A stretch of DNA of 64,000 bases from NCBI RefSeq assembly GCF_054482595.1, contig NZ_CM137008.1. One strand, written 5' to 3'. A program made the translations under genes and the position numbers. Of the stretch, positions 4,403 through 51,297 are shown piece after piece; within the stretch, counting starts at the first letter, position 1, and every line of letters starts with the position of its first letter. The notes under the pieces are model-generated. The model was not told where the DNA came from. It worked only from the letters and a program-made list of their open reading frames with translations, and made no database searches.

Positions 4403-4488
4403 TGTAGGCAGGATAAGGCGTTTACGCCGCATCCGGCATTTGAGCAGGATGCCTGATGCGACGCTGATAGCGTCTTATCAGGCCTACA
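4403..4488. repeat. REP/BIME element pair
   Basis: Convergent GCCGGATGCGGCGTAAACGCCTTATCC / GCCTGATAAGACG...CATCAGGC palindromic units between cpxA and yiiM. Confidence 0.8.
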
Positions 4489-7468: not shown

Positions 7469-8503
7469 ATGAGTAACGCGATTACGATGGGGATATTTTG
7501 GCATTTGATCGGCGCGGCCAGTGCAGCCTGTTTTTACGCTCCGTTCAAAAAAGTAAAAAAATGGTCATGGGAAACCATGTGGTCAGTCGGTGGGATTGTT
7601 TCGTGGATTATTCTGCCGTGGGCCATCAGCGCCCTGTTACTACCGAATTTCTGGGCGTATTACAGCTCGTTTAGTCTCTCTACGCTGCTGCCTGTTTTTC
7701 TGTTCGGCGCTATGTGGGGGATCGGTAATATCAACTACGGCCTGACCATGCGTTATCTCGGCATGTCGATGGGAATTGGCATCGCCATTGGCATTACGTT
7801 GATTGTCGGTACGCTGATGACGCCAATTATCAACGGCAATTTCGATGTGCTGATTAACACCGAAGGCGGACGCATGACGTTGCTCGGCGTTCTGGTGGCG
7901 CTGATTGGCGTAGGGATTGTAACTCGAGCCGGGCAGTTGAAAGAGCGCAAGATGGGCATTAAAGCCGAAGAGTTCAATCTGAAAAAAGGGCTGGTGCTGG
8001 CGGTGATGTGCGGCATTTTCTCTGCCGGGATGTCCTTTGCGATGAACGCCGCAAAACCGATGCATGAAGCCGCTGCCGCACTTGGCGTCGATCCACTGTA
8101 TGTCGCTCTGCCAAGCTATGTTGTCATCATGGGCGGCGGCGCGATCATTAACCTCGGTTTCTGTTTTATTCGTCTGGCAAAAGTGAAGGATTTGTCGCTA
8201 AAAGCCGACTTCTCGCTGGCAAAACCGCTGATCATTCACAATGTGTTACTCTCGGCACTGGGCGGGTTGATGTGGTATCTGCAATTCTTTTTCTATGCCT
8301 GGGGCCACGCCCGCATTCCGGCGCAATATGACTACATCAGTTGGATGCTGCATATGAGCTTCTATGTATTGTGCGGCGGTATCGTCGGGCTGGTGCTGAA
8401 AGAGTGGAACAATGCAGGACGCCGTCCGGTAACGGTGTTGAGCCTCGGTTGTGTGGTGATTATTGTCGCCGCTAACATCGTCGGCATCGGCATGGCGAAT
8501 TAA
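7469..8503 (+). CDS. rhaT: L-rhamnose:H+ symporter
   Basis: 344 aa, [35 protein letters not shown]...; 10-TM DMT-type. Confidence 0.95.
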
Positions 8504-13276: not shown

Positions 13277-13600
13277 GCCGGATGCGGCGCGAGCGCCTTA
13301 TCCGGCCTACAGGTCGGCAACAGTTGTAGGCCTGATAAGACGCGACAGCGTCGCATCAGGCATTGATTGCCGGATACGGCACGAGTGCCTTATCCGGCCT
13401 ACAGGTCGGCAATAGTTGTAGGCCTGATAAGACGCGACAGCGTCGCATCAGGCATTGATTGCCGGATGCGGCACGAGCGCCTTATCCGGCCTACAGGTCG
13501 GCAATAGTTGTAGGCCTGATAAGACGCGACAGCGTCGCATCAGGCATTGATTGCCGGATGCGGCACGAGCGCCTTATCCGGCCTACGGGTCGTGCATCCG
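13277..13600. repeat. Tandem BIME array: about 3.5 copies of a 92-bp unit, each holding a convergent REP pair
   Basis: Unit starts (GCCGGAT(G/A)CGGC...) at 13277, 13369, 13461 and 13553; near-identical copies, few substitutions. Confidence 0.9.
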
Positions 13601-21116: not shown

Positions 21117-21950
21117 TTAATTGCTCAAACGCTGCGGATGGGTATAAACCGTTGCCCGACCCGGTTTACAAAAACCTACCAGTGTCAAATTACAGCGCTC
21201 AGCCACTTCTACAGCAAGCGTGGTCGCGGCAGACACCGCAAACAAAATCTCTACGCCGCACATCGCCGACTTTTGCACCATTTCATAACTGGCACGACTG
21301 GAAACCAGTACCGCACCTTGCTGCCAGCTTTCCCCTTCTTGTGACCGGCGGCCTAACAGTTTGTCCAGCGCCACATGGCGACCCACGTCTTCATGCCCGC
21401 CGACCAGTTCGCCAGATGGCAACATCCAGGCAGCGGCGTGAGTACAACCAGTCAGTTGCCCCACTGGCTGAAAATCGTTGAGATGACGTAATGCATCATC
21501 CAGTTTGTTGAGATCAAACGTCTGGGTGAACGGTAGCGGCTGCACCGGTTTTCCGATGTCATTAAGTTGCTCCACGCCGCATACGCCACAGCCCGTACGT
21601 CCCGCCAGCGCCCGGCGGCGCTCCTTCAACCCCATAAAGCGGCGGCTGGAAAGCTCAATTTGTACTTCAAGACCATTACAGGAAGGAACGACATCCATGC
21701 CGAAGATATCGCGCGGACTTTCTATTATCCCCTCGGAAAGCGAAAAACCGAGCGCAAAGTACTCAAGGTCTTTGGGCGACGCCATCATCACCACATGCGA
21801 AATGCCGTTGTAGACCAGCGCAACGGGAACTTCTTCCGCGACCTCATCCAACCGTGGGTGTTGTAAATCGTCACGCCGCCATAACTCAATTTGACGAACA
21901 CCTGTGATATTCATCACATTTTTGATTTCTTTTTGCTGTGTTTTTTTCAC
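21117..21950 (-). CDS. fdhD: Formate dehydrogenase maturation sulfurtransferase
   Basis: 277 aa, [28 protein letters not shown]...; divergent from fdoG. Confidence 0.92.
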
Positions 21951-22143
21951 TTTCTCTTAACCAGATAAGAACACACACACCAACATTATGGTATTCTGTT
22001 ACAAACCCTTCCTGGATGGAGGGAAATTGAGCCAATTCTGGACCTTTGCGGCCCCTTCCGCAAAGAAAAATAACTCCCACTCCCTGCACACTCAGCAAGC
22101 GAATGTAAATGGGACGTGACAATGTCGAAACAAGGAGCAATCC

Positions 22144-25100
22144 ATGCAGGTCAGCAGAAGGCAGTTCTTTAAGATCTGCGCTGGCGGTATGGCAGGCACC
22201 ACGGCAGCGGCACTGGGTTTTGCACCCAGCGTAGCACTCGCGGAAACCCGGCAGTATAAACTGCTGCGCACCCGCGAAACCCGTAATACCTGCACCTATT
22301 GTTCCGTAGGCTGTGGGCTGTTGATGTACAGCCTCGGTGACGGAGCAAAAAACGCCAAAGCATCTATCTTCCATATCGAAGGCGATCCGGATCACCCGGT
22401 CAACCGCGGTGCACTTTGTCCGAAAGGCGCTGGCCTGGTGGATTTCATCCACTCCGAAAGCCGTCTGAAGTTCCCGGAATACCGTGCCCCTGGTTCTGAT
22501 AAATGGCAGCAAATCAGTTGGGAAGAGGCGTTTGATCGCATCGCCAAACTGATGAAAGAAGACCGCGATGCTAACTACATTGCGCAAAACGCCGAAGGCG
22601 TGACCGTTAACCGCTGGCTCTCCACCGGGATGCTGTGTGCTTCCGCGTCGAGTAACGAAACCGGCTATTTAACGCAAAAATTCTCCCGCGCGCTGGGTAT
22701 GCTCGCGGTCGACAACCAGGCGCGTGTCTGACACGGACCAACGGTAGCAAGTCTTGCTCCAACATTTGGTCGCGGTGCGATGACCAACCACTGGGTCGAC
22801 ATCAAGAACGCCAACCTCGTCGTGGTGATGGGCGGTAACGCCGCTGAAGCTCACCCGGTCGGATTCCGCTGGGCGATGGAAGCCAAAATTCACAACGGCG
22901 CGAAGCTGATTGTGCTCGATCCTCGCTTTACGCGTACGGCGGCAGTGGCTGACTACTATGCCCCTATTCGTTCCGGTACTGACATTGCTTTCCTGTCAGG
23001 CGTATTGCTGTACCTGCTGAACAATGAAAAATTCAACCGCGAATACACCGAAGCCTATACCAACGCCAGCCTGATCGTGCGTGAGGATTACGGCTTTGAA
23101 GATGGCCTGTTCACCGGCTACGACGCAGAAAAACGCAAGTACGATAAATCCTCCTGGACTTACGAACTGGACGAAAACGGCTTCGCCAAACGCGATACCA
23201 CGCTGCAACATCCGCGCTGCGTGTGGAACTTGCTGAAACAGCACGTTTCCCGCTACACGCCAGATGTGGTTGAAAACATCTGTGGTACGCCAAAAGACGC
23301 GTTCCTGAAAGTCTGCGAATACATCGCAGAAACCAGTGCTCACGATAAAACTGCCTCGTTCCTGTATGCCCTCGGCTGGACGCAACACTCCGTTGGTGCG
23401 CAAAACATTCGTACGATGGCGATGATCCAGCTGCTGCTCGGCAACATGGGGATGGCAGGCGGCGGCGTTAACGCCCTGCGCGGTCACTCCAATATTCAGG
23501 GGCTGACGGACCTGGGCCTTCTGTCGCAGAGCCTGCCAGGTTACATGACGCTGCCAAGCGAGAAGCAGACCGATCTGCAAACCTACCTTACCGCCAACAC
23601 GCCAAAACCGCTGCTGGAAGGCCAGGTAAACTACTGGGGCAACTACCCGAAATTCTTCGTCTCCATGATGAAGGCTTTCTTTGGTGATAAAGCAACGGCG
23701 GAAAATAGCTGGGGCTTTGACTGGTTGCCGAAGTGGGATAAAGGCTACGACGTCCTGCAATACTTCGAGATGATGAAAGAGGGCAAGGTCAATGGCTATA
23801 TCTGCCAGGGCTTTAACCCTGTTGCCTCATTCCCGAACAAAAACAAAGTGATCGGTTGTCTGTCGAAACTGAAGTTCCTCGTCACCATCGACCCGCTGAA
23901 CACTGAAACCTCTAACTTCTGGCAGAACCACGGTGAGCTGAACGAAGTTGACTCGTCGAAGATCCAGACCGAAGTGTTCCGTCTGCCATCGACCTGCTTC
24001 GCGGAAGAGAACGGTTCTATCGTAAACTCAGGTCGCTGGTTGCAGTGGCACTGGAAAGGTGCGGACGCCCCAGGGATTGCGCTGACTGATGGCGAGATCC
24101 TCTCCGGTATCTTCCTGCGCTTGCGCAAGATGTATGCCGAACAGGGTGGCGCGAACCCGGACCAGGTGCTGAACATGACCTGGAACTACGCCATTCCGCA
24201 TGAGCCGAAGTCGGAAGAAGTAGCGATGGAGAGCAACGGTAAGGCGCTGGCCGATATTACCGATCCGGCAACCGGTGCGGTTATCGTCAAGAAAGGCCAA
24301 CAACTTAGCTCGTTTGCCCAACTTCGCGATGACGGTACAACTTCCTGTGGTTGCTGGATTTTCGCCGGTAGCTGGACGCCGGAAGGCAACCAGATGGCAC
24401 GCCGTGATAACGCCGATCCGTCTGGCCTCGGTAACACGCTGGGCTGGGCATGGGCATGGCCGCTTAACCGCCGCATTCTGTATAACCGCGCCTCCGCAGA
24501 TCCGCAGGGTAACCCGTGGGATCCGAAGCGTCAGTTGCTGAAATGGGACGGCACTAAGTGGACCGGCTGGGATATTCCGGACTACAGCGCAGCGCCTCCG
24601 GGTAGCGGCGTCGGGCCGTTTATCATGCAGCAGGAAGGCATGGGGCGTCTGTTTGCCCTCGATAAGATGGCGGAAGGTCCGTTCCCGGAACACTACGAGC
24701 CGTTTGAAACGCCGCTGGGAACTAACCCGCTGCATCCAAACGTTATCTCGAACCCGGCTGCACGTATCTTTAAAGACGACGCCGAAGCATTGGGTAAAGC
24801 CGATAAGTTCCCGTATGTCGGAACCACCTATCGTCTGACCGAGCACTTCCACTACTGGACCAAACACGCGCTGTTGAACGCGATTTTGCAACCAGAGCAG
24901 TTTGTGGAAATCGGGGAGTCGCTGGCGAATAAACTTGGCATTGCCCAGGGCGATACCGTGAAAGTCTCCTCCAACCGTGGCTATATCAAAGCCAAAGCGG
25001 TGGTGACCAAACGTATTCGTACGCTGAAAGCGAACGGCAAAGATATCGATACCATCGGTATTCCGATTCACTGGGGTTATGAAGGCGTAGCTAAAAAAGG

Positions 25101-25194
25101 CTTTATTGCCAATACGTTAACGCCATTCGTTGGTGATGCGAACACGCAGACGCCGGAGTTTAAGTCCTTCCTTGTGAATGTGGAAAAGGTGTAA
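22144..25194 (+). CDS. fdoG: Formate dehydrogenase-O catalytic subunit, selenoprotein; in-frame TGA at 22729..22731 read as selenocysteine
   Basis: Track ORFs 22144..22731 and 22780..25194 are in the same frame; reading through TGA gives a continuous ...AVDNQARV-U-HGPTVASLAPTFGRGAMTNHW... molybdopterin-oxidoreductase protein; Tat signal RRQFFK and Cys cluster at N-terminus. Confidence 0.93.
22732..22775 (+). other. Putative SECIS stem-loop directly 3' of the UGA-Sec codon
   Basis: Immediately downstream of TGA: local inverted repeat (GCAAG-tc-CTTGC within GGTAGCAAGTCTTGCTCC), in the position required for bacterial SECIS elements. Confidence 0.55.
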
Positions 25195-25206: not shown

Positions 25207-26109
25207 ATGGCTTATCAATCTCAAGATATCATTCGTCGTTCCGCGACTAACGGTCTGACCCCCGCGCCTCAGGCGCGGGACTTCCAGGAAGAAGTGGCGA
25301 AACTCATCGACGTCACCACCTGTATCGGCTGTAAAGCCTGTCAGGTGGCGTGTTCAGAGTGGAACGACATTCGCGATACCGTCGGCAATAACATTGGGGT
25401 GTACGACAACCCCAATGATTTAAGCGCCAAATCGTGGACGGTAATGCGCTTCTCGGAAGTGGAGCAGAACGACAAACTGGAATGGCTGATCCGCAAAGAC
25501 GGCTGTATGCACTGTTCCGATCCAGGCTGCCTGAAAGCGTGCCCGGCGGAAGGTGCAATTATTCAGTATGCCAACGGTATCGTCGACTTCCAGTCCGAGC
25601 AGTGCATTGGCTGCGGTTATTGCATTGCGGGCTGTCCGTTCGACATTCCGCGCCTCAACCCGGAAGACAACCGCGTCTACAAATGTACGCTGTGCGTTGA
25701 CCGCGTGGTGGTTGGGCAAGAACCAGCCTGCGTGAAGACCTGCCCAACGGGCGCGATTCACTTCGGTACGAAAGAGTCGATGAAAACGCTGGCGAGCGAG
25801 CGCGTTGCTGAGCTGAAAACCCGCGGTTACGACAATGCGGGTCTGTACGATCCGGCAGGCGTCGGTGGTACACACGTCATGTACGTGCTGCACCATGCTG
25901 ACAAGCCAAATCTGTATCATGGCTTGCCGGAGAACCCGGAAATCAGCGAAACCGTGAAATTCTGGAAAGGCATCTGGAAACCGCTCGCGGCTGTTGGCTT
26001 TGCGGCTACCTTTGCGGCCAGTATCTTCCACTACGTGGGTGTCGGTCCGAACCGTGCGGATGAGGAAGAGAATAATCTGCACGAAGAGAAAGACGAGGAG
26101 CGCAAATGA
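25207..26109 (+). CDS. fdoH: Formate dehydrogenase-O iron-sulfur subunit
   Basis: 300 aa; four CxxCxxCxxxCP ferredoxin motifs, C-terminal TM anchor. Confidence 0.95.
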
Positions 26110-26741
26110 AACGACGTGACACCATCGTGCGCTACACCGCGCCGGAACGTATCAACCACTGGATCACCGCCTTCTGCTTCATCCTGGCGGCGGTGAGCGG
26201 GCTGGGCTTTTTGTTCCCGTCCTTCAACTGGTTGATGCAAATCATGGGCACACCGCAGCTGGCGCGAATTCTGCACCCGTTTGTCGGCGTGGTTATGTTT
26301 GCCTCGTTCATCATCATGTTTTTCCGTTACTGGCATCACAACCTAATCAATCGGGATGATATCTTTTGGGCGAAGAATATTCGTAAGATCGTCGTCAACG
26401 AGGAAGTAGGTGACACCGGGCGTTATAACTTCGGTCAGAAATGCGTTTTCTGGGCGGCGATTATTTTCCTGGTTCTGCTGCTGGTGAGCGGCGTGATTAT
26501 CTGGCGTCCTTATTTTGCGCCTGCTTTCTCAATCCCGGTGATCCGATTCGCGTTAATGCTGCATTCATTTGCCGCAGTGGCGTTAATTGTGGTTATCATG
26601 GTGCATATCTACGCCGCCCTTTGGGTGAAAGGCACGATTACCGCCATGGTGGAAGGATGGGTTACCAGCGCCTGGGCGAAGAAACATCACCCGCGCTGGT
26701 ACCGTGAGGTCCGCAAGACAACGGAAAAGAAAGCTGAATGA
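26106..26741 (+). CDS. fdoI: Formate dehydrogenase-O cytochrome b556 subunit
   Basis: 211 aa; four TM helices with heme-ligand His; 4-bp overlaps on both sides. Confidence 0.95.
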
Positions 26742-27667
26742 GTATTCGCATAATCCCGCAAGATGAGCTGGGTTCGAGCGAGAAACGTACGGCGGATATG
26801 ATTCCGCCGTTATTGTTCCCTCGGCTCAAGAATTTATACAACCGCCGCGCCGAGCGTCTGCGCGAGCTGGCAGAAAATAATCCGCTGGGTGATTACCTGC
26901 GCTTTGCTGCGCTTATCGCCCACGCCCAGGAAGTGGTGCTGTACGACCATCCGCTGGAGATGGATCTGACCGCGCGCATTAAAGAAGCCAGCGCACAGGG
27001 CAAGCCCCCGCTGGATATTCACGTTCTGCCGCGTGATAAGCACTGGCAAAAGCTGCTGATGGCGCTGATTGCTGAGCTGAAACCTGAAATGAGCGGCCCG
27101 GCGCTGGCAGTGATTGAGAATCTGGAGAAGGCATCAACTCAGGAGCTGGAAGATATGGCCAGCGCACTGTTTGCCTCTGATTTCTCATCCGTCAGCAGCG
27201 ATAAAGCGCCGTTTATCTGGGCTGCACTGTCGCTCTACTGGGCGCAGATGGCCAATCTGATCCCCGGCAAAGCCCGCGCTGAATACGGCGAGCAACGTCA
27301 ATATTGCCCGGTTTGTGGTTCTATGCCGGTGTCCAGCATGGTGCAAATTGGCACCACTCAGGGTCTGCGTTACCTGCACTGCAACCTGTGTGAAACCGAA
27401 TGGCACGTAGTGCGCGTAAAATGCAGCAACTGCGAGCAGAGCGGCAAACTGCATTACTGGTCGCTGGATGACGAACAGGCCGCGATTAAAGCCGAAAGCT
27501 GCGATGACTGTGGCACTTACCTGAAGATTCTTTATCAGGAAAAAGAACCGAAAGTTGAAGCCGTGGCAGATGACCTCGCTTCTCTGGTACTGGACGCGCG
27601 AATGGAGCAAGAAGGCTATGCCCGCAGTTCCATCAACCCGTTCCTGTTTCCGGGTGAAGGGGAGTAA
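26738..27667 (+). CDS. fdhE: Formate dehydrogenase accessory protein
   Basis: 309 aa; paired CxxC motifs ([27 protein letters not shown]). Confidence 0.93.
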
Positions 27668-51097: not shown

Positions 51098-51248
51098 AAC
51101 TTTGCCTCAGGCATTAGAAATAGCGCGTTATTGTACACGGATTAATCGCACTACAAAACAGGATCACAAACATCCTCCGCAAACAAGTATTGCAGAGTCC
51201 CTTTGTGATCGCTTTCACGGAGCATAAAAAGGGTTATCCAAAGGTCAT

Positions 51249-51297
51249 TGCACCAATATGGTGCTTAATGTTTCCATTGAAGCACTATATTGGTGCA
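51249..51297. promoter_or_regulatory. Tandem NtrC-binding sites (TGCACC-N5-GGTGCA type) upstream of glnA
   Basis: TGCACCAATATGGTGCT (51249..51265) and GCACTATATTGGTGCA (51282..51297). Confidence 0.75.

Follow-up and report, generated by a model that had tools for sequence, protein, structure and literature searches.

Positions 22144..25194 (plus strand) of the window, by which we mean the whole stretch of 64,000 nucleotides analysed here, almost certainly hold Escherichia coli fdoG as one gene, which codes for a molybdo-selenoprotein of 1016 residues with UGA codon 196 recoded as selenocysteine. The selenoprotein identity of Fdh-O is already known and is textbook biology; the three selenoprotein formate dehydrogenases of E. 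coli, the SECIS element and SelB-dependent recoding were all established decades ago. The continuity of the frame, the homology of its product, the position of the U residue, the match to a SECIS model and the covariation are direct observations of the present analysis. An in-frame TGA that is taken as a stop leads to fdoG being wrongly split or 'pseudogenised', and the value of these observations is that of an annotation sanity check.

The fdo locus

Many E. coli chromosomes carry the fdoG DNA of the window at 100% identity, and 5425 of 5426 complete genomes contain it. RefSeq/PGAP annotates it as a single CDS of 3051 nt with no pseudogene flag. The gene and its neighbours are arranged as follows.

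21117..21950, minus strand: fdhD, accessory sulfurtransferase, divergent from fdoG (TIGR00129, 340 bits; RefSeq annotation)
22144..25194, plus strand: fdoG, alpha (catalytic) subunit of formate dehydrogenase O, 1016 codons plus stop, codon 196 UGA
25207..26109, plus strand: fdoH, iron-sulfur beta subunit (TIGR01582, 478.7 bits; RefSeq annotation)
26106..26741, plus strand: fdoI, cytochrome b556 gamma subunit (NF007924, 453 bits; FdnI model NF007558, 244 bits)
26738..27667, plus strand: fdhE, formate dehydrogenase accessory protein (NF002925, 604 bits)

The higher score of the gamma subunit on NF007924 than on the FdnI model identifies the locus as fdo, not fdn. The synteny, with fdhD facing away from fdoG-fdoH-fdoI-fdhE, matches the K-12 order b3891-b3895. 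The K-12 fdoG gene itself (b3894, NP_418330.1) has the same length of 3051 nt, the same TGA at codon 196 and the same neighbours; the 38 nucleotide and two amino acid differences (L258I and K689S relative to K-12) are ordinary strain-level variation. PGAP gives the name 'fdnG' to both paralogues, fdoG and fdnG. A passage in PMC5714196 dates the first report of the fdo sequence to 1993.

Reading frame and the internal TGA

A mechanical list of open reading frames divides the gene into an ORF of 195 aa that stops at the TGA (22144..22731) and one of 804 aa (22780..25194); both are on the plus strand. Their starts lie 636 nt apart (22780-22144, or 212x3), so that both ORFs share one frame. When 22144..25194 is translated, its 1017 codons contain an internal stop at codon 196 only, plus the terminal stop, which agrees with the description in the earlier note of two ORFs in the same frame parted only by TGA 22729..22731.

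22729..22731, plus strand: UGA codon 196, selenocysteine, active-site Mo ligand (read directly; opposite X196 of 1kqf_A; Sec-196 by mass spectrometry, PMC3636253)

With codon 196 as the sole internal stop, the frame is open from 22732, and the ATG at 22780 is merely where the ORF lister restarts. Codons 197-212 (HGPTVASLAPTFGRGA), which separate the TGA from this ATG, rank with the most highly conserved of the family; a pattern built on them retrieved 121 loci.

REPARATION, which works without recoding logic, has also split fdoG into two ORFs (PMC5714196). The expectation that automated callers would truncate or flag the gene therefore holds for this tool and for the raw ORF list, but not for RefSeq/PGAP, whose single non-pseudo CDS indicates that only naive ORF callers split fdoG. 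The locus can serve as a positive control for gene callers that take selenoproteins into account.

The joined product and its domains

Protein searches were made with residue 196 entered as X. The joined product scores 1570.4 bits on TIGR01553 (cut-off 814.2), with residues 2-1015 on profile positions 1-1009, and can be aligned with FdnG over its whole length (1kqf_A, E = 0). Within this alignment X196-H197 of the query stands opposite X196-H197 of 1kqf_A, inside an identical block of 22 residues (ARV-U-HGPTVASLAPTFGRGAMTNHW). The joined translation is thus a continuous formate-dehydrogenase subunit, as had been proposed, and the alignment that the earlier note suggested for the U position puts the TGA at residue 196. 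Its assignment of the TGA to the active-site selenocysteine is borne out by this alignment, by the SECIS match described below and by the published mass spectrometry of Sec-196 (PMC3636253). Failure of the frame 3' of the TGA to align to formate dehydrogenases had been named as an observation that would overturn the reading; the 820 codons downstream are intact and show homology along their entire length. The following parts of the product can be delimited.

22144..22242, plus strand: probable Tat signal peptide, residues 1-33, MQVSRRQFFKICAGGMAGTTAAALGFAPSVALA (SRRQFFK motif read directly)
22273..22452, plus strand: molybdopterin-oxidoreductase Fe4S4 domain, residues 44-103, with Cys50, Cys53, Cys57 and Cys92 (Pfam PF04879, E = 5.4e-16)
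22462..23910, plus strand: molybdopterin oxidoreductase domain, residues 107-589, spanning the UGA (Pfam PF00384, E = 2.5e-27)
24823..25170, plus strand: molybdopterin dinucleotide-binding domain, residues 894-1009 (Pfam PF01568, E = 9.8e-16)

The domain order of Fe4S4, molybdopterin and MGD-binding is that of FdnG/FdoG-type alpha subunits, and the four cysteines have been named as the [4Fe-4S] ligands (PMC3636253).

A twin-arginine motif, SRRQFFK, and an AxA site are visible in the translated leader, whose 33 residues match, letter for letter, the Tat signal peptide that PMC7549933 tabulates for FdoG. A Pfam search of FdoG returned no TAT_signal match, and TIGR01409 gave 7.6 bits on the leader, under its cut-off of 16.7. 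The Tat signal claimed earlier is probable, an assignment that rests on the motif seen in the translation and on the match to the published leader, the profile models having stayed below threshold.

Architecture of the SECIS element

A hairpin is present directly downstream of the TGA, where the earlier note had placed a local stem-loop, and it matches Rfam SECIS_3 at 84.3 bits, above the gathering score of 63 (E = 8e-20). The match extends over the whole model (positions 1-59 of 59), in which positions 4-6 hold the UGA.

22726..22784, plus strand: bacterial SECIS element, within the CDS (Rfam RF01989 SECIS_3)
22743..22760, plus strand: apical SECIS stem-loop GGUAGCAAGUCUUGCUCC, putative SelB-binding part, with bulged U 22745 and loop GUC 22751..22753
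22732..22774, plus strand: lower SECIS helix, outer limits, 22732..22741 paired with 22766..22774

A spacer of 11 nt (22732..22742) leads from the UGA to the apical stem-loop, in which the stem is formed by 22746..22750 and 22754..22758 and the loop G-U lies at 22751-22752. The 11-nt spacing, the bulged U and the loop G-U are features that SelB requires. The register of the lower helix depends in part on the method, as RNAalifold shifts some of it by one relative to Rfam.

The experimentally dissected SECIS of E. coli fdhF (Rfam SECIS_2) has the same 11-nt distance between its UGA and the apical hairpin. This fdhF hairpin, GGUUGCAGGUCUGCACC, and that of fdoG both start with GGU, end with CC, and carry a bulged U as well as a G-U in the loop. 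However, the fdoG element belongs to another Rfam family than that of fdhF: on SECIS_2 it reaches just 28.1 bits (gathering score 70), as against 84.3 bits on SECIS_3. The drawn loop has 3 nt in fdoG but 4 in fdhF, and the lower stems differ in sequence.

Conservation and covariation

Covariation was assessed in 58 distinct homologous sequences from many genera; the pattern search that gave the 121 loci was anchored on the TGA and could return TGA-bearing sequences only. In this set, 100% of cells in the apical helix are paired, and two of its pairs covary at synonymous sites. Pair 21/33 is GC in 32 sequences, AU in 19, GU in 6 and CG in 1, and pair 24/30 is AU in 26, CG in 24 and GC in 8; all of these changes fall at third codon positions. 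The apical helix also holds 52 of the 64 cells in which both sides have changed. In the lower helix 83% of cells are paired, and covariation is weaker. For the structure as a whole, pairing reaches 90.5%, compared with 26-48% in controls with slid partners, and the covariation score was reached by none of 500 shuffles.

Codon choice is restricted as well. Thr200, which is four-fold degenerate, is ACG and Ser203, which is six-fold degenerate, is AGT in all 116 of 116 sequences. These choices fix the closing G-C pair and also the G-U of the loop, which the Ser203 codon supplies. The exact SECIS 59-mer occurs in 49 of the 121 loci, across many Enterobacterales genera. At a threshold of 99% identity, 5432 of 5433 E. 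coli records, corresponding to 5425 of 5426 E. coli genomes, contain a 71-mer that includes the TGA (22726..22796).

The same segment stands out in a comparison with E. coli fdnG (b1474; 1KQF), a paralogue at another locus (the nitrate-inducible fdnGHI) that has Sec at 196 and the same domain order. The two genes share 77% amino acid identity and, despite a DNA identity of 74.9% overall, have a longest identical run of 71 nt that is exactly 22726..22796. The SECIS 59-mer of K-12 fdnG is identical to that of the window, and the identity extends 12 nt past the Rfam model.

Folding energy of the hairpin

The fold of 22729..22780 suggested as a check in the earlier note does yield a hairpin, with an MFE of -14.6 kcal/mol, but its stability is not above that of dinucleotide shuffles (z = -0.61); three windows around the TGA, this one included, gave z-scores of -0.61, +0.02 and +0.33. 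Resampling of synonymous codons gave a mean of -18.7 kcal/mol, and 1818 of 2000 resamples folded at least as well as the native sequence. The complete apical helix arises in 1.7% of such resamples because five of its seven pairs are set by the protein sequence. We therefore discount free energy as evidence for the SECIS, the native fold being weaker than the average synonymous recoding and the z-score not significant. It follows that 'absence of any stable hairpin', the other ground for refutation that had been named, is a weak test, since stability here matches that of shuffled sequence. With a hairpin of such unexceptional stability, conserved shape and covariation become the discriminating evidence, and SECIS detection is best based on these and not on hairpin free energy.

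A candidate Rfam FdoG1_thermometer in the 5' UTR scored 31.9 against a gathering score of 50, with an unremarkable fold (z = -0.33), and is not claimed.

Decoding of UGA 196 and alternative readings

In the E. coli sel system, the elongation factor SelB with Sec-tRNA(Sec) binds the SECIS and delivers selenocysteine to the ribosomal A site, where it competes with release factor 2. We infer that SelB binds the fdoG hairpin at 22743..22760. In this mechanism, UGA codon 196 is recoded as selenocysteine during translation, and the mRNA hairpin directly 3' of it, with its apical stem-loop, is the SECIS. Full-length FdoG binds a [4Fe-4S] cluster and the bis-MGD molybdenum cofactor, with Sec196 as a Mo ligand; it would be exported by the Tat pathway via its N-terminal SRRQFFK signal, and acts together with FdoH and FdoI, the products of the next two genes downstream.

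Ribo-seq data show a ribosome density about 100-fold lower after the UGA than before it, whereas RNA-seq shows a difference of about 3-fold (PMC5714196). Such a drop implies that recoding can be inefficient, with many ribosomes terminating at the UGA. Taken together with the shared 59-mer and the identity of fdoG and fdnG up to 22796, it could mean that the region around UGA 196 is constrained beyond a minimal SelB-binding hairpin, either as a tuned translational gate that involves a further interaction, so far undescribed, or through a role of its own for an abundant 195-aa Tat-signal/Fe-S fragment. We regard this extension as improbable, and gene conversion may instead account for the identity of the paralogues around the UGA.

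A different decoding is conceivable for any leaky UGA codon: a standard near-cognate tRNA, for Trp or Cys, could read it in place of Sec-tRNA(Sec), with the hairpin doing no more than delaying termination. The window itself adds nothing in favour of such read-through. It is very unlikely here, as full-length FdoG has been purified and sequenced by mass spectrometry, which identified the UGA-encoded Sec-196 and never found Cys at that position, and translation of fdoG without Sec-tRNA(Sec) was reported to end at UGA 196 (PMC3636253). A selC mutant was likewise without Fdh-N/O activity (PMC3160892). Furthermore, the hairpin has the specific conserved features of a SECIS and is not just any stable structure.

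The output of the mechanical caller and of REPARATION corresponds to two genes, one for a 195-aa Tat-signal/Fe-S protein (22144..22731) and one for an 804-aa protein starting at ATG 22780. This arrangement is scarcely credible, given the strong conservation of codons 197-212, which would lie between the two genes, and direct reading of the bases upstream of ATG 22780 (GGTCGCGGTGCG) revealed no Shine-Dalgarno-like sequence. A single PF00384 match runs across codon 196, which argues against separate genes, and FdnG is one chain of 1015 residues in the crystal structure. That codon 196 is instead an inactivating nonsense mutation and fdoG a pseudogene, as the frame-splitting stop of a naive ORF scan and the fall in Ribo-seq density might suggest, can be dismissed with near certainty: the TGA is kept in the 71-mer of nearly all E. 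coli genomes, in the paralogue fdnG and in the 121 loci from many genera (by a search limited to TGA-bearing sequences), the downstream codons are intact, RefSeq sets no pseudogene flag, and the published full-length FdoG with Sec-196 refutes it (PMC3636253).

Relation to periplasmic formate dehydrogenases

Formate dehydrogenases of the Desulfovibrio type, FdhAB, are in part tungsten enzymes, and are not known to be anchored in the membrane by a cytochrome b subunit. The alpha subunits of these periplasmic enzymes (for example PDB 8cm4, 6sdr and 1h0h) are more distant from FdoG, but are full-length homologues of it (E about 1e-279) and contain selenocysteine according to their depositors.

Reading frame and gene identity

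The fdoG gene, encoding the alpha subunit of E. coli formate dehydrogenase O, appears in a mechanical ORF list as two entries: 22144..22731 (+), of 195 amino acids and ending in TGA, and 22780..25194 (+), of 804 amino acids. Their starts lie 636 nt (212 codons) apart and they therefore share a frame; because no further stop lies between the TGA and the ATG at 22780, where the sequence reads HGPTVASLAPTFGRGA, nothing but the TGA, read in the raw sequence at 22729..22731, divides them. Translation of 22144..25194 agrees with this claim of the earlier note, giving 1016 sense positions, a sole internal stop at codon 196 and a terminal stop. The joined product matches TIGR01553 over its whole length (1570 bits, cut-off 814), and Pfam places its Fe4S4, molybdopterin and MGD-binding domains in the order expected. 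It is thus a continuous molybdopterin formate dehydrogenase subunit, as had been proposed.

Genes around fdoG, all far over their respective NCBIfam cut-offs
21117..21950, divergent, fdhD
25207..26109, neighbour of fdoG, fdoH
26106..26741, neighbour of fdoG, fdoI (gamma subunit)
26738..27667, neighbour of fdoG, fdhE

The gene order is the same in K-12. The gamma subunit is much closer to the FdoI than to the FdnI model (453 versus 244 bits), which identifies the locus as fdo, not fdn. The gene differs from fdoG of K-12 MG1655 (b3894) by 38 nucleotides and two amino acids; many E. coli chromosomes are 100% identical over the 3.3-kb fdoG region, and 5425 of 5426 complete E. coli genomes match it over 80% or more of the query.

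Reading of codon 196

The best match in a PDB sequence search was FdnG, the paralogous alpha subunit of E. coli Fdh-N (1kqf_A; E = 0; residues 1-1015 against 1-1014), so that the frame downstream of the TGA is homologous end to end. Query residue 196 lies opposite non-standard residue 196 of the crystallised FdnG chain in the identical block DNQARV-X-HGPTVASLAPTFGRGAMTNHWVDIKNAN, placing the TGA at the expected active-site selenocysteine (Sec) position. Further top matches bear the depositors' title 'Formate dehydrogenase, alpha subunit, selenocysteine-containing'.

Three other readings of the TGA are excluded. Read-through without Sec is contradicted by published mass spectrometry and selC data: in purified Fdh-O, UGA-specified Sec was found at FdoG position 196 and cysteine never there, and without Sec-tRNA(Sec) fdoG mRNA is stated to be translated only as far as UGA 196 (PMC3636253); the Fdh-N/O activity band is missing from a selC mutant, with fdoG deletion and complementation behaving as expected (PMC3160892). 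Two separate genes split at the TGA are at odds with the high conservation of codons 197-212, the missing ribosome-binding site ahead of 22780 and the single Pfam domain, molybdopterin, that runs across the junction. A pseudogene is incompatible with the conservation across E. coli of a 71-mer containing the TGA, the same TGA in fdnG, the 820 intact and homologous codons downstream, and the full-length selenoprotein already purified (PMC3636253). The proposal of one selenoprotein gene was therefore correct in both observation and interpretation; fdoG is a textbook E. coli selenoprotein gene, and as such already known.

From what is established for the E. coli sel system, SelB·GTP·Sec-tRNA(Sec) would bind the apical stem-loop 3' of the UGA and deliver Sec to it, in competition with RF2. 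In ribosome profiling, ribosome density falls ~100-fold across the Sec codon (RNA-seq, ~3-fold; PMC5714196), and most ribosomes thus apparently terminate at codon 196 under those conditions.

The SECIS element

The predicted local stem-loop does form downstream of the TGA (-14.6 kcal/mol for 22729..22780), but its stability is not discriminating. It is no different from that of dinucleotide shuffles in three windows (z = -0.61, +0.02 and +0.33) and weaker than the mean for synonymous codings of this peptide (-18.7 ± 3.1 kcal/mol), so free energy alone neither supports nor refutes the claim.

The discriminating evidence lies in model match, likeness to known elements, sequence identity, covariation and invariant codons. 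The SECIS_3 covariance model (RF01989) aligns over its full length to 22726..22784 with 84.3 bits (gathering score 63; E = 8e-20 locally, 1.4e-18 in the whole window), and K-12 fdnG has the identical 59-mer and an equal score. The gene fdhF scores 87.1 bits with the sister model SECIS_2; fdhF and fdoG alike have exactly 11 nt from the UGA to an apical hairpin that starts with GGU and ends with CC (GGUUGCAGGUCUGCACC in fdhF, GGUAGCAAGUCUUGCUCC in fdoG). Although fdnG and fdoG share only 74.9% DNA identity, and use identical codons for only 57% of shared amino acids, their longest identical run is 71 nt, exactly 22726..22796 (next longest, 36 nt). Of 5433 E. coli records, 5432 contain this 71-mer at >=99% identity, usually in two copies per genome.

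Covariation was examined in one genome per species using back-translated U-H-G-P-T-V-A-S-L-A-P-T-F-G with free third positions, which yielded 121 loci and 58 distinct 59-mers. Under the Rfam structure, 100% of cells in the apical helix (22743..22750 with 22754..22760) are paired across these 59-mers. Two of its pairs vary, jointly and with no unpaired case: Val201-third/Ala205-third (GC 32, AU 19, GU 6, CG 1) and Ala202-third/Leu204-third (AU 26, CG 24, GC 8). For the whole structure, the observed covariation score was reached by none of 500 column shuffles, and shifting the 3' partners one to three columns along lowered pairing from 90.5% to 26-48%. Despite four-fold codon degeneracy at Thr200 and six-fold at Ser203, 116/116 sequences use ACG for the former, the source of the G that closes the apical helix, and AGT for the latter, the source of the loop G-U. 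The gene thus bears a SECIS of the enterobacterial fdnG/fdoG type, whose apical hairpin has evolutionary support. Support is weaker for the lower helix (22732..22741 with 22766..22774), in which 83% of cells are paired and for which RNAalifold favours a slightly different register.

Synonymous-site conservation

The sole by-product of note, mildly notable, is how fully the SECIS freezes synonymous sites. The two paralogues share one 59-mer, which recurs at 49 of the 121 sampled loci, in genera including Photorhabdus, Yersinia, Providencia, Morganella, Serratia, Citrobacter, Enterobacter and Klebsiella. Identity between fdoG and fdnG extends 12 nt past the 3' end of the Rfam model, to 22796, and codons 210-217 likewise show unusual synonymous-site conservation across 116 sequences; extra constraint or gene conversion between the paralogues could be the cause.

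Among ~10,830 fdoG/fdnG-region matches in the E. coli collection, seven are on plasmids; one of 5426 complete genomes has no match, and NZ_CP061758.1 has a single copy only, 98.6% identical over the 71-mer. One contig of an uncultured Enterobacterales MAG (L020) carries two SECIS-bearing formate dehydrogenase alpha genes ~6 kb apart, with slightly different SECIS sequences (2247-2305 and 8161-8219).

Annotation, leader and other features

The expectation that automated callers would truncate or flag fdoG holds for a raw ORF list without recoding logic and for REPARATION, whose own authors noted the split (PMC5714196), but not for RefSeq/PGAP, where fdoG of the identical strain and of K-12 is a single 3051-nt CDS without a pseudogene flag; modern pipelines therefore cope with it. 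PGAP gives this fdo-locus gene the name 'fdnG: formate dehydrogenase-N subunit alpha' (e.g. NZ_CP019359.1, L001:4145-7195), while its neighbours are correctly named fdoH and fdoI. The label is a mislabel, a naming quirk; the equivalog model TIGR01553 spans both paralogues.

The first 33 residues (MQVSRRQFFKICAGGMAGTTAAALGFAPSVALA), the putative Tat signal, agree residue for residue with the FdoG Tat signal peptide listed in PMC7549933; generic profile models stayed below threshold on this N-terminus. The 5' UTR and first codons (21975..22173 (+)) gave a sub-threshold match to RF02778, 'FdoG-1 5' UTR thermometer' (31.9 bits, gathering score 50, E ~1e-5), aligning well only at the Shine-Dalgarno/start-codon end; the fold of this region is unremarkable (z = -0.33).

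Elsewhere in the window, three small RNAs expected of this E. coli chromosomal neighbourhood exceed their Rfam gathering scores, and four copies of the naRNA4 (CssrE) family, three in tandem, look like REP/BIME-type intergenic repeats.

Small RNA and naRNA4 matches in the window
4407..4484 (+) and 13329..13583 (-), naRNA4 (CssrE) copies
51179..51286 (-), ES222, 133 bits
58064..58317 (-), CsrC, 278.7 bits
59346..59464 (-), Spot 42, 122.8 bits
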